Source: Escherichia phage vB_EcoP_IMEP8
Length of the DNA stretch: 64,000 nt
Sequence record: NC_070993.1
Direction: 5' to 3' (one strand)
Made by a program: the position numbers and the translations under genes. Within the stretch, counting starts at the first letter, position 1; the number at the start of each line of letters is the position of its first letter. Below, piece after piece: positions 59,957 through 64,000 of the stretch. The notes beneath the pieces were generated by a model, which was given only the letters and a program-made list of their open reading frames with translations, did no database searches and had not been told where the DNA came from.

Positions 59957-61153
59957 TTATTTTCCTAAAAATAATCCGCTCATAACACCATCCCACTCAG
60001 AGGAAGGAATCACTGAATACTCCGAACTTTGGTCCAGAGTCCCACTACTAAATCGCTGAACAATGTTGTAGATATTGAACAGGTCTTTAGCCTCGGCACG
60101 AATGCCGTAGATTAGCCTGTTAGCTGTTTTCTCATTTTTAGACACGCGACGGGTAAAGTTAACCAAAAGGTTGTCACCTTTAAGTATCTCTGACCCATCT
60201 TTTACTAGATCGGGGTGCATCACTGGCAAGAACATTGAGTTGTTAACTCGCAATTCTGCTGTTTCATCATTCTCATAATGAATCCACTTAAAGTCTTCAT
60301 CACGGAAGTGACCACATCCATCTCTGTACGACTGCTGACGCCAAGGCACTTGAAATGCTTCAGCATATTTATCAGCCATGCCGACTGTAAACAGCGACGC
60401 TGGGAAGATACAAGCATCCCAATCGTTACCAACCAGAGTTGCTTTCGTTTCCCCCAAGAGATTGGTGTAAGTACTAACCATTCGGGAATAAACGTAAGCC
60501 TGAAGGATTGTCCACCCCTCAACCAACCATTTATGAAGGAAGATTTCAACCTGACTCTCTTCATCTTCGCAATAGAAGGTTCGATCTAACATCAAATAGA
60601 ACAGACAACGATCAGCAGGAACATTCTCAGTTGCTACACCCATAAAACCTTTTTCGTGCCAGCGTAAACAGGAGGGACGATCTTTGTCCACAAATGCTTC
60701 CATAGCTTCCAGTACAGCACGAGGTGTGGTTCGATGCTCAGGGTTTTTGTCGTTCCAACGTTCGATGTTATTTTTAAGCTCGCCTTCGTAATCAATAGCA
60801 CCCCAACCTAAAGCTGCGGATACAGGTTTTTCATCACGCCAACGTCTAAAACCTAACATCTTCATGTGAGTTCCGGAGTTCCAGATATGCTTGATTTTAC
60901 ACATATCCATCTCTCGGCTTAACAGGAACTCTTCCCCATCAGCACTACGAACGTTAGCTTCTTCATGCCACACTCGAACGTGCATATTCCACCCATGAGT
61001 TGCCTCATACATGTTCGGGTCGAAGTAGTCATCATATTCGTCATCGTCTTCATCAACGCCACCGTTATAGTTGCGAAGCTGAAGGAACCCATAACAAGGA
61101 GGGTGGACCGTTAAAACATTACCTTCAGTATCTTCTAATGTTACTGGAAACAT
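59957..61153 (-). CDS. hypothetical protein of the amidoligase module (398 aa)
   Basis: ORF from track; acidic N-terminal segment, several conserved-looking Cys/His/Asp. Confidence 0.5.
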   Translation of the reverse strand: MFPVTLEDTEGNVLTVHPPCYGFLQLRNYNGGVDEDDDEYDDYFDPNMYEATHGWNMHVRVWHEEANVRSADGEEFLLSREMDMCKIKHIWNSGTHMKMLGFRRWRDEKPVSAALGWGAIDYEGELKNNIERWNDKNPEHRTTPRAVLEAMEAFVDKDRPSCLRWHEKGFMGVATENVPADRCLFYLMLDRTFYCEDEESQVEIFLHKWLVEGWTILQAYVYSRMVSTYTNLLGETKATLVGNDWDACIFPASLFTVGMADKYAEAFQVPWRQQSYRDGCGHFRDEDFKWIHYENDETAELRVNNSMFLPVMHPDLVKDGSEILKGDNLLVNFTRRVSKNEKTANRLIYGIRAEAKDLFNIYNIVQRFSSGTLDQSSEYSVIPSSEWDGVMSGLFLGK

Positions 61154-61164
61154 TATACCAACCT

Positions 61165-61527
61165 CTATTGGTTTTTAATCAACTCAATCGACTTACGGAT
61201 ATAAAGAATATCTCGGAAGTTTCGGTAGTTGTTCATAAATTGGTGCTTCTGGAAAGTAGCTTCTTCCAGAGCTTTCTTTGCTTCTGCGTAGTTTTTACGG
61301 GCAAGATGTACAACCCGCTCTGGTAACACATTTGCACGACGGATGAGATACTTGTGAGCTTTCATGTTGCTTTGCTCACGAGAAATCTTACCTTTAGCAA
61401 CTTTGATACCATTTGCAATCCAAGCAAGTTCTTGCTCAAGCTCATCGTTGGACATTCCACCGAGATTTGATGCAACCTTGTTCAGAGTTTCAATATTAAC
61501 GTTGCCCTTGATGGGACGTGTATTCAT
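61165..61527 (-). CDS. hypothetical helical protein (120 aa)
   Basis: ORF from track; RBS overlaps the stop of an upstream 50-aa ORF. Confidence 0.45.
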   Translation of the reverse strand: MNTRPIKGNVNIETLNKVASNLGGMSNDELEQELAWIANGIKVAKGKISREQSNMKAHKYLIRRANVLPERVVHLARKNYAEAKKALEEATFQKHQFMNNYRNFRDILYIRKSIELIKNQ

Positions 61528-61529
61528 AC

Positions 61530-61682
61530 TTACTCCTGTTGTTTACACTCGTCAATAACCCACTGATAAGTGGATTGCCCAGAAAAGAAACACTGAATAA
61601 ATCCAGATGTTCTCTGCGTTACCAGTGCTAGTGCACAAATCACTACCGCCGCTGCTAGCAGTTTTAAATCTAATTTAGACAT
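61530..61682 (-). CDS. small signal-peptide/TM protein (50 aa), not in ORF track
   Basis: Hand translation MSKLDLKLLAAAVVICALALVTQRTSGFIQCFFSGQSTYQWVIDECKQQE; RBS GAGG 5 nt upstream. Confidence 0.4.
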   Translation of the reverse strand: MSKLDLKLLAAAVVICALALVTQRTSGFIQCFFSGQSTYQWVIDECKQQE

Positions 61683-61911
61683 ATTTCCTCTCATTGAATT
61701 TAAAAAAAGACTCTCCGAAAAGAGCCAAGCTTTAAATCCAAAAAAAAGATATTACCCAATATCTGTGGATAACCTGCTCTTAAAATATCTATCCGACGGA
61801 TGTTTGAGGAACACTCCTCGCCCTAGCATCGGCCCCATACGGGAAATATATTAAGATTAGGTTAGTTGAGTTAGAATAACTCACATAGCCCTCCGAAGAA
61901 GGCTATAGGTG

Positions 61912-62379
61912 TCACTCTACCTTAACTGAAGGACAGTATTTCTCTTTCTTGCTGCGATACATCACAACAATCCAATTTGAATCACGACGCTCCTTCTTGA
62001 GCCGCTTCTTCTCAGCACGGAGTTCATATGTACTGTTTCGCCTGTCTCGGAGTTTGTCACGCGCCTTAGTTAAAAGCCACGTTGTACCAATCACGAAACC
62101 TACTAGACTTCCAGCAGCACCTAAACCAACCATGGGAGCAGCAAACCAAGTCCACCATACAAACGTACCTGCCGTATCGTGCCCCATTAGTGAGCCTCCG
62201 ATAAGACATAACGCTACATATAACATAGCAGAGAGCGCTATCAGTACGGCAAAGTTTTGAACTGTTCGCCAGAAGTATTCACAGAAGTTGGTCATGTTGT
62301 CCCAATGATAATAGGGTAGGCTTGACATGGCTTTGTTGAATTTGTGCAACCAGCCGTTCTTGTTAATCTTGATCATCAC
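61912..62379 (-). CDS. membrane protein with basic C-terminal tail (155 aa)
   Basis: At least two predicted TM helices then KR-rich tail. Could be a holin-like or superinfection-exclusion protein; not established. Confidence 0.45.
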   Translation of the reverse strand: MMIKINKNGWLHKFNKAMSSLPYYHWDNMTNFCEYFWRTVQNFAVLIALSAMLYVALCLIGGSLMGHDTAGTFVWWTWFAAPMVGLGAAGSLVGFVIGTTWLLTKARDKLRDRRNSTYELRAEKKRLKKERRDSNWIVVMYRSKKEKYCPSVKVE

Positions 62380-62609
62380 TCACCTTTCTTGGCACGATCT
62401 TTGGCAGTTTTACCAGTGCGGATGCGATGGGAAACGTTAACCAGAGTGCCACCATCAACTACGGTAACGCTCTTATTTTTAGCCAGATCGAACACAGTCT
62501 TCTCTGTGCCACCCAAGCGAATTTGCTTAGGTTCACTGAAGGTTTGGGTTGATTTGGATTGGAACTGGAACGGTTGACGGATTGCATCGATTGCGCTTAC
62601 TTTAGACAT
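62376..62609 (-). CDS. hypothetical small basic protein (77 aa)
   Basis: ORF from track; 4-nt overlap with the downstream membrane-protein gene. Confidence 0.4.
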   Translation of the reverse strand: MSKVSAIDAIRQPFQFQSKSTQTFSEPKQIRLGGTEKTVFDLAKNKSVTVVDGGTLVNVSHRIRTGKTAKDRAKKGE

Positions 62610-62840
62610 AGGGGAAATTCCTTAAAAAGTTATGGCTGCGTAGAGGGAATTCCCTACGCAAATTGGGCCGCCCACAGAGAGGCGTCATAGTACTAAAAGG
62701 AGGAGAGAAGAGGGCTTATTTAGCTACCTTTTTCTGTCCGTTTACGAACCAGATAATTGAACCATCAGGCTGTCGTTGACCGAAGCCTTTCTGATTAATC
62801 ATATCGTCATAAGAATATGCTTTACGTCTCATTTATTTTC

Positions 62841-63083
62841 CTATGGAGTTAAGATAATTTCAGCCTTACTAAACTTCTCACCAACTTCAAGAGTATCAGC
62901 AACAGGACGGGGCACACCTGTACCCAAACAAACAGCCCTTCGATACCCTCCAGTCACAGGCATCATCAAATAGATGATCTGATTATCATCTTCTTTTAAA
63001 GTGAAGATATCAGAGATCGATAGATCTTTAACAAAGAGTTTCTTTTCTTCTTCATGATGAACTTTGATATGTATTGTGCTCAT
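62841..63083 (-). CDS. small protein, tandem paralog array member 4 (80 aa)
   Basis: Shares L..L..G..F / V.PV pattern with three upstream ORFs. Confidence 0.45.
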   Translation of the reverse strand: MSTIHIKVHHEEEKKLFVKDLSISDIFTLKEDDNQIIYLMMPVTGGYRRAVCLGTGVPRPVADTLEVGEKFSKAEIILTP

Positions 63084-63085
63084 AC

Positions 63086-63331
63086 CTACTCCTGAACCAC
63101 TGACATACGAATCATTTCTACCTGATCATCAAGACCTTTAACAGATAATACACCTGTGAAAAGGTTTACCACAGGAACCCAACCACTGGCTATACGGATG
63201 TTACCAGAAGCATTTTCAACCCTCATGTAATACTGAGGAGAGGCGCTTCCGTTCTGAACCATAAAAGGGTTTCCGGGAATGATTGTTTCCAATCGTACCG
63301 TATTATCCTTTTTCTTTGGGATGATTTTCAT
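63086..63331 (-). CDS. small protein, tandem paralog array member 3 (81 aa)
   Basis: Same family pattern (VRLETIIPGNPFMV...VPVVNLF). Confidence 0.45.
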   Translation of the reverse strand: MKIIPKKKDNTVRLETIIPGNPFMVQNGSASPQYYMRVENASGNIRIASGWVPVVNLFTGVLSVKGLDDQVEMIRMSVVQE

Positions 63332-63570
63332 TAGACATTACTCACTAAAAGTTCGGCTGATACAGGGACAACTTGGCACGTAGAATCTGGTGCTGTTACA
63401 AGTCCGTCATGTAGACGAAGGGCTAGAGTACGTCCACTATTTACGGATACATTGGGTGTGCCGTGAACAAAACCTTTAACATAAAGTGTATCACTATCTG
63501 GATGCTTAAACACGGCCCCATTTTCTAAGGACTCAAGTGGGACACGATCCACTCTCTTTGTAATTTTCAT
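63331..63570 (-). CDS. small protein, tandem paralog array member 2 (79 aa)
   Basis: Same family pattern (VPLESLENGAVFKH...LRLHDG...VVPVSAELLV). Confidence 0.45.
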   Translation of the reverse strand: MKITKRVDRVPLESLENGAVFKHPDSDTLYVKGFVHGTPNVSVNSGRTLALRLHDGLVTAPDSTCQVVPVSAELLVSNV

Positions 63571-63821
63571 TTAGAACCCTTAATAACGTTGGCTTCGACT
63601 TTAACAGGGATAACAGTAATACCATCAACCGGACCACTCAGATTACCATCTTCCAGCCTGACACACACGACTCGATCTCGTGCAACTTCTACCCAATTAG
63701 TAGATGCCGCAGTACAAACCATATGGATTGGACCATTCTCTTCCAGCCGGAAGGTATCGCCCTTCTTCAGAGTGCGGAGCTTTGCTGTCTTGATGGTTTT
63801 GTTCAACTCGTTAACTTTCAT
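63567..63821 (-). CDS. small protein, tandem paralog array member 1 (84 aa)
   Basis: Same family pattern (AKLRTLKKGDTFRL...VRLEDG...VIPVKVEANV). Confidence 0.45.
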   Translation of the reverse strand: MKVNELNKTIKTAKLRTLKKGDTFRLEENGPIHMVCTAASTNWVEVARDRVVCVRLEDGNLSGPVDGITVIPVKVEANVIKGSK

Positions 63822-64000
63822 ATTGATTCCTATTTAAGTTTGAGGCTAATATTCAGGTGCATACATGCCCTGTTCTGTACAGCAGCATAACTTCTACCGA
63901 GCATGTCAGCCATTCTCTGAATAGACATGAACCCAGCATTACGGATAAGGAACTGGTCTTCTTCTTTAGACCACTTAACTCGGATTACAGCTCTAGAGAT

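Follow-up and report, generated by a model that had tools for sequence, protein, structure and literature searches.

The window analysed here, a 64,000-nt stretch of the genome of Escherichia phage vB_EcoP_IMEP8, belongs to a phiEco32-like coliphage (Gordonclarkvirinae, Kuravirus group). At positions 62841-63821, it carries four consecutive minus-strand open reading frames (ORFs), here called A to D (Table 1). Their lengths and spacing are those given in the initial annotation: the overlap is 4 nt for A and B (ATGA, with the start codon of B lying on the stop codon of A) and 1 nt for B and C (TAATG), and a gap of 2 nt lies between C and D. The surrounding 1.4 kb is 92% identical to phage Paul and also matches 87 other Escherichia and Shigella phage records. 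Every orthologue of the array genes is annotated as "hypothetical", and those of Paul carry annotated ribosome-binding sites. Slot A occupies the position of phi32_98, where phiEco32 has a different subtype.

The array is framed by two conserved anchors. Upstream, the stop codon of a phi32_99-like regulator lies 8 nt from the start of A; its label was taken from the annotation of the orthologues in Paul, phiEco32, 172-1, and EP335, and its nucleotide identity is 96% to Paul, phiEco32, and 172-1 and 86% to EP335. Downstream, the anchor is the 38-aa ORF, which shares 94 to 99% nucleotide identity with Paul, phiEco32, 172-1, and EP335 (in EP335 over 64% of the gene) and 82% with SU7. The 38-aa ORF does not belong to the family.

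Table 1. Genes of the array, its neighbours, and further family members in two related phages
Feature	Position	Strand	Product	Remarks
Upstream gene, 3' part	63830-64000	minus	"transcriptional regulator, D5-like"	phi32_99 homologue; cut by the window
Paralogue A	63567-63821	minus	84 aa, pI 9.3	first gene of the array; phrog_7832
Paralogue B	63331-63570	minus	79 aa, pI 6.8	phrog_7832; phi32_97
Paralogue C	63086-63331	minus	81 aa, pI 9.2	phrog_7431; phi32_96
Paralogue D	62841-63083	minus	80 aa, pI 5.9	phrog_12612; phi32_95
38-aa ORF	62716-62832	minus	38 aa	phi32_94 homologue; phrog_14557; directly 3' of the array
phiEco32, solo copy	L009 25572-25793			phi32_104
phiEco32, second array	L009 28031-28733			phi32_113-115
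Paul, solo copy	L001 8601-8822			gp108
Paul, tandem copies	L001 11997-12731			gp125-127

No promoter or terminator candidate was found on the coding strand inside the array, and the scan yielded fewer promoter-like sites there than in shuffled sequence. Because of the ATGA and TAATG overlaps and the lack of internal promoter and terminator candidates, A to D most plausibly form one operon. An Rfam scan of positions 61000-64000 returned only a subthreshold TarB match (E = 0.35). Within 62606-62720 (minus strand), a 106-nt noncoding gap separates the 38-aa ORF from the next gene (62376-62609). This gap contains a hairpin with a 10-bp palindromic stem, GCGUAGGGAA-UUCCCUCUACGC, and about 10 nt beyond it a U-run (fold, -27.1 kcal/mol; z = -1.7). 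An alignment to the distant phage SU7 (82% identity) covers the 3' part of the gap (62676-62715) and the 38-aa ORF. The hairpin could terminate or attenuate transcription, or mark a processing site between the array operon and the genes that follow.

The array had been placed near a genome end. However, the 179 nt beyond it lead only to the edge of the window, where the genome continues, and the apparent location is an artefact of the window, since the upstream gene runs past its boundary. In phiEco32, the equivalent genes 95 to 98 lie at 63.2 to 64.2 kb of a 77.6-kb genome, approximately 13 kb from the genome end. The suggested early-region setting fared better, as the array falls in a block treated in the phiEco32 literature as an early host-takeover cluster: located in the right part of the genome, read leftward by the σ70 holoenzyme of the host, and composed of host-takeover genes of unknown function (PMC8948821; PMC9965538). 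Synteny with phiEco32 therefore suggests that A to D are expressed early.

Homology and predicted fold of the four proteins

Pairwise comparison linked A to B (Smith-Waterman z = 11.6; blastp E = 1e-8), gave marginal scores for A-C (z = 3.2) and B-C (z = 2.7), and detected no signal between D and A, B, or C (z of about 0). All four proteins had full-length matches to PHROG HMMs, A (5e-25) and B (7e-17) to phrog_7832, C (2e-31) to phrog_7431, and D (4e-39) to phrog_12612, and weak cross-matches connected these families. With all window ORFs and five related loci as its search space, a local iterative HMM search settled on 33 ORFs; A to D were among them, and no other ORF of the window joined the family. 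Since iteration can drift, independent noniterative tests were run as well. When profiles of slot-specific orthologues were compared by hhalign, A matched B at 97% probability, and C and D matched dispersed copies at 83% and 88%, respectively; every comparison with six unrelated families, used as controls, had a P of at least 0.025.

The remote members outside the Kuravirus group provided a further test. The set of remote members had itself been gathered with a profile in which some D-type sequences were present, and one C-type sequence (P0137) stayed in the remote profile. An HMM built from eight remote members matched A (1e-14), C (3.7e-11), B (7e-8), and D (2e-4) as well as D orthologues down to 8e-9, and the first nonfamily ORF followed at 0.12. 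Aligned by hhalign to a remote profile free of D, the four proteins reached probabilities of 97.5 to 98.9% (A, 98.7%; B, 98.9%; P of 1e-11 to 1e-17), with a D-only profile matching over 65 columns (97.5%; P = 6e-12), and six unrelated small-protein families of the same region had a P of at least 0.043. Judged by these sequence comparisons, A, B, C, and D are all homologous, with D being the most diverged. The paralogy proposed in the initial annotation is thus borne out by pairwise alignment for A and B and, above the unrelated controls, by profiles for C and D.

The residue pattern originally quoted for the array corresponds to the L..L..G-D/x-x-F turn of the family. In an alignment of 130 sequences, the strongly conserved positions were M1, K2, I3, L15, L18, G21 (98%), F24 (100%), Y33, M34, V54, L56, G59 (97%), V70, and V73, all of them core or turn residues; D22, K35, N55, and T58 are further conserved positions. 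In D, Ser replaces the Gly of the G-x-x-F turn and the β3-β4 loop is short. No conserved set of His, Cys, or Ser residues was found in this alignment, which argues against catalysis. The conserved aromatic residues are F24 (100%) and Y33 (77%), which may or may not take part in a cage of three to four conserved aromatics as in Tudor and PWWP readers. The scaffold keeps constant spacing (5 residues between L18 and F24 and 13 between L56 and V70), and length variation is concentrated in two loops, β3-β4 (7 to 33 residues) and β2-β3 (6 to 18 residues).

AlphaFold2 modelled A with a pLDDT of 85.9 from a 125-sequence alignment and D with a pLDDT of 87.6 from a 59-sequence alignment; because the latter alignment held other family members, the two models are not fully independent. 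Both had a pTM of 0.76 and were all-β with the elements in the same order, and 36 of the 60 chains listed in the structure searches with A and D occurred in both. Each model forms a five- to six-stranded barrel that superposes on known SH3-like domains. A and D are therefore predicted to be SH3-like small β-barrels, which agrees with the small β-rich domain expected earlier. Sequence identity to known domains of this type (the uL2 C-terminal domain, EF-P/eIF5A domain I, KOW, Tudor, PWWP, and FeoA) is 2 to 20%, without a Pfam match, and the likeness is at the level of the fold and is not evidence of membership. ORF041 of Staphylococcus phage 37 (PDB 2p84; 133 aa), whose entry title names no function, shares 14 to 16% identity, and comparison of the family profile with PDB sequences detected no sequence-level relationship to it. 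A match of A to 4p99 (MpAFP RII; E = 0.0014) disappeared when the family profile was used.

Age of the duplications and exchange between phages

The duplication had been regarded as recent, but the copies share only 17 to 27% protein identity and no DNA similarity, and they have orthologues across genera. Searches for DNA repeats linking the genes yielded only chance matches of 12 to 16 nt. Orthologues of B, C, and D are present in Kuravirus (phiEco32, Paul, and 172-1) and Nieuwekanaalvirus (EP335), and those of B and D also in Suseptimavirus (SU7); the duplications are therefore older than the divergence of these genera. To judge from the sequences, the copies diverged anciently.

In contrast to the flanks of the array, which share 93 to 99% nucleotide identity with Paul, phiEco32, and 172-1, the identities of the slots are mosaic. 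Slot A is polymorphic and the most variable, with A being 85% identical to Paul at the nucleotide level, lacking a nucleotide match in phiEco32, and matching 172-1 over only 18% of the gene. Slot C is the most conserved (90 to 96% amino acid identity in Paul, phiEco32, and 172-1). By nucleotide identity, C and B are nearest to Paul (96% and 95%, respectively), and D is 99.6% identical to 172-1. The four-slot order is common to Paul, phiEco32, and 172-1, and the number of genes at the locus in relatives ranges from three (SU7) to five (EP335). Collectively, these data revealed that the slots recombine independently between conserved flanks by mosaic exchange. The genes are also under purifying selection, as dN/dS of A to D was 0.04 to 0.44 (0.12 to 0.24 for C), and A and its Paul counterpart retain 93% amino acid identity at a dS of 0.88.

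A gene for a 155-aa membrane protein homologous to phi32_92 (61912-62379, minus strand) shares 71% nucleotide identity with phiEco32 and 89% with 172-1, and nothing in Paul, EP335, or SU7 matches it at the nucleotide level. This patchy occurrence represents a second presence/absence polymorphism just downstream of the array.

Distribution of the domain family

Eight to nine copies are encoded by phiEco32, namely phi32_95-98 (the array), the solo gene phi32_104, a second array (phi32_113-115), and the marginal phi32_109; Paul has eight. The solo gene and the second three-gene array sit upstream of the array, past the end of the window. The Kuravirus-group members fall into at least eight PHROGs, all of "unknown function" (phrog_7832, 6570, 8365, 7431, 12612, 16423, 9955, and 10911), which cross-hits and profiles unite into one superfamily. 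PHROGs keeps its parts as separate unannotated families, and their link, fold, and wider distribution are not recorded there.

Word-indexed protein searches with single queries found close Kuravirus relatives only, and an alignment query and an exhaustive HMM search were needed to reach further. The exhaustive profile search over 1.84 billion cluster representatives yielded 484 protein clusters (50% identity) at an E value of at most 1e-3. Most of the 484 are stand-alone proteins of 68 to 95 aa with the signature MKI...L..L.pGDvF...YYmK...aVnL.tG...V.pV, and about 18 of the best 150 matches are fused tandem forms of two to five copies (P0138, P0141, P0149, P0202, P0220, and P0136). A Foldseek search of BFVD likewise showed that many virulent phages encode small, unnamed proteins with this fold, among them N4 (Gp21), PaP3 (ORF.65), LAMP, Cronus, Myduc, Luksen, Seu621, and 7-11. 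The remote loci with a family member have one copy each. The array is thus part of a lineage-specific expansion of a widespread superfamily.

In HMM scans, N4 Gp21 and PaP3 ORF.65 proved to be single-copy members. The HMM built from remote members alone matched them with E values of 1.7e-12 and 1.3e-5, respectively, and Foldseek with 7.6e-4 and 2.9e-4 (TM scores of 0.65 to 0.73). Like A to D, they are of the same protein size and lie within blocks of small ORFs; unlike the array genes, they are single copies, and their identity to A is 19 to 24%. Both are likewise uncharacterised. PaP3 gp70.1, considered as a characterised relative, is an unrelated 131-aa protein. A comparison of PaP3 (L011 31900-45400) with phiEco32 (L009 11900-36000) revealed a shared order of ligase and transferase genes (γ-glutamyl cyclotransferase, S6-glutaminyl transferase, GlmS-like aminotransferase, amidoligase, and COOH-NH2 ligase). 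After these genes comes a block of small ORFs running leftward, to which ORF.65 of PaP3 belongs.

None of A to D had a match in Pfam or, at an E value of at most 1, in NCBIfam; a Pfam search with 125 family members gave a best E value of 0.004, with no match recurrent or relevant, and the family profile had no match among PDB sequences. PADLOC gave no match at an E value of at most 1, a weak test because this collection covers defence systems and not anti-defence. A literature search that covered PMC9965538, PMC8948821, and a wider set of papers found the genes nowhere described as a family or as duplicates, and the strings "paralog" and "duplicat" do not occur in PMC9965538 or PMC8948821. Small accessory early proteins of virulent phages are a known kind; the domain family is undescribed, being absent from Pfam, NCBIfam, and PDB despite its presence in the model phages N4, PaP3, and phiEco32.

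Several distant matches deserve mention. P0136 (L012 3583-5019), a 478-aa chromosomal protein of a Tenacibaculum metagenome-assembled genome (Flavobacteriia), begins with an SprT-like zinc-metalloprotease domain and carries five copies of the small domain in tandem behind it, and its neighbours are housekeeping genes (LpxK, RF-1, and NIF3); it is the only fusion found to a domain of known type. P0133, a single-copy remote member on metagenome contigs L006 and L007, lies in a long same-strand run of small genes together with DUF4313, cREC_REC, DUF6927, DUF932, and a reverse transcriptase, and this locus resembles the accessory island of a mobile element more than a Kuravirus-like phage. P0131 is an NHL-repeat protein that matched spuriously through a VVNLHTGxI motif, and proteins of 800 to 2200 aa from the deep search, for which Pfam support was absent or irrelevant, were excluded from use. 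Some members or fold matches of 77 to 85 aa bear odd names ("DNA helicase", "Endolysin", and "ZP domain-containing protein"; P0123 of phage EcoN5, 85 aa, and BFVD entries A0A7L4XW47 and A0A5J6T783), which are probably annotation errors propagated between records.

Proposed role and its alternatives

We propose that A to D would be cotranscribed as a translationally coupled block of the leftward early cluster, each gene yielding a stand-alone protein of approximately 9 kDa that is predicted to form an SH3-like barrel of five to six β-strands. The barrel would serve as a rigid noncatalytic scaffold, conserved in its core glycines and hydrophobic residues, with the differences between copies placed on the surface and in the two length-variable loops (β2-β3 and β3-β4). 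Early in infection, the proteins would exert their effect stoichiometrically, through binding to host macromolecules; these would most likely be proteins, either host-takeover targets or defence proteins, with a different one for each paralogue. The array would be a recombination hot spot in which single slots are swapped between related phages. Taken as a whole, this picture of noncatalytic early binders, built on a rigid SH3-like scaffold, directed at a host or defence target of their own, and encoded by a cassette-like recombining array, seems to us evenly poised between right and wrong; within it, what we infer is that the proteins are binders and which kinds of target they have. The host-takeover or anti-defence role suggested in the initial annotation would be compatible with the evidence. 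Circumstantial support for binders comes from the Gordonclarkvirinae being reportedly unusually resistant to restriction-modification and other defences with no known inhibitor (PMC11990801). DNA mimicry of the Ocr/ArdA anti-restriction type is excluded by the isoelectric points (9.3, 6.8, 9.2, and 5.9) and net charges (+3.6 to -2.2) of A to D.

Protein binders have to be weighed against small nucleic-acid-binding modules (KOW-, Tudor-, or Sso7d-like) that would coat or recognise DNA or RNA early in infection and thereby affect transcription, translation, or nucleoid structure of the host or the phage. Nucleic acids are ligands of SH3-like barrels no less often than proteins are, A and C have basic isoelectric points, a predicted transcriptional regulator lies directly upstream of the array, and one cellular relative, P0136, joins five copies to a SprT-like metalloprotease, a kind of protease that is often DNA-dependent. 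However, B and D are not basic, and acidic and neutral proteins predominate in the family (median pI of the remote members, 5.7, with 24 of 126 above pI 8), which favours protein over nucleic-acid ligands; together with the isoelectric points of A to D, this weighs against a uniform nucleic-acid-binding role. Moreover, K2 and K/R35 are the only conserved basic or aromatic surface positions, and the KOW, Tudor, and PWWP models of Pfam found no sequence match, so that we consider nucleic-acid modules unlikely. Alternatively, the four proteins might be subunits of one hetero-oligomer and the array the split-gene equivalent of the fused multidomain proteins, acting as a single multivalent unit. 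By Rosetta-stone logic, the fused forms among the best 150 matches point that way, the ATGA and TAATG coupling favours coordinated, near-stoichiometric synthesis, and the slot order is kept in Paul, phiEco32, and 172-1. Fixed partners are nevertheless difficult to reconcile with slots that swap independently, as seen in the replacement of the A type by the phi32_98 type, in the five genes of EP335 and three of SU7, and in the near identity of D to 172-1, where A matches only 18% of its gene, or with the single copies of N4, PaP3, and the remote loci; we regard the hetero-oligomer as rather improbable.

That the genes are decaying or nonfunctional leftovers of old duplications could be argued from the lack of a known function and from the copy number differing between relatives. 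Against this, the dN/dS values and the persistence of the A protein sequence despite synonymous divergence from Paul speak of constraint, the frames are intact in every relative examined, orthologues carry annotated ribosome-binding sites, the predicted folds are confident, and the family is conserved across hundreds of clusters. This disfavoured reading is hardly credible. At the other extreme, the family might be a general-purpose hypervariable binder scaffold of virulent phages, with each Kuravirus cassette neutralising a different defence or takeover target. We deem this a long shot; if it were true, it could account for the broad defence resistance of the Gordonclarkvirinae, and the fused proteins of two to five copies would represent this scaffold in a multivalent version.

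At present, the finding is a well-defined protein family and not a mechanism. The shuffling of eight to nine copies between Kuravirus-group strains is the typical behaviour of host-interaction accessory genes, and since the reported defence resistance lacks a known inhibitor, the array provides a short list of candidates for testing. The family would make a sensible DUF definition and supplies candidates for host-takeover and anti-defence screens, and if the proteins are binders with different targets, their scaffold would also be of interest to protein engineers.

Elsewhere in the window, positions 52438-52686 (minus strand) encode a protein identical to phiEco32 gp79, which binds RNA polymerase and displaces region 4 of σ70. 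Neither the gp79 of the window nor phi32_79 matched either family HMM or resembled the motif, and gp79 was rejected as a family member. Nevertheless, this 82-aa phiEco32 protein acts purely by binding host RNA polymerase (PMC12276001) and offers a working precedent for the binding mode proposed for A to D.
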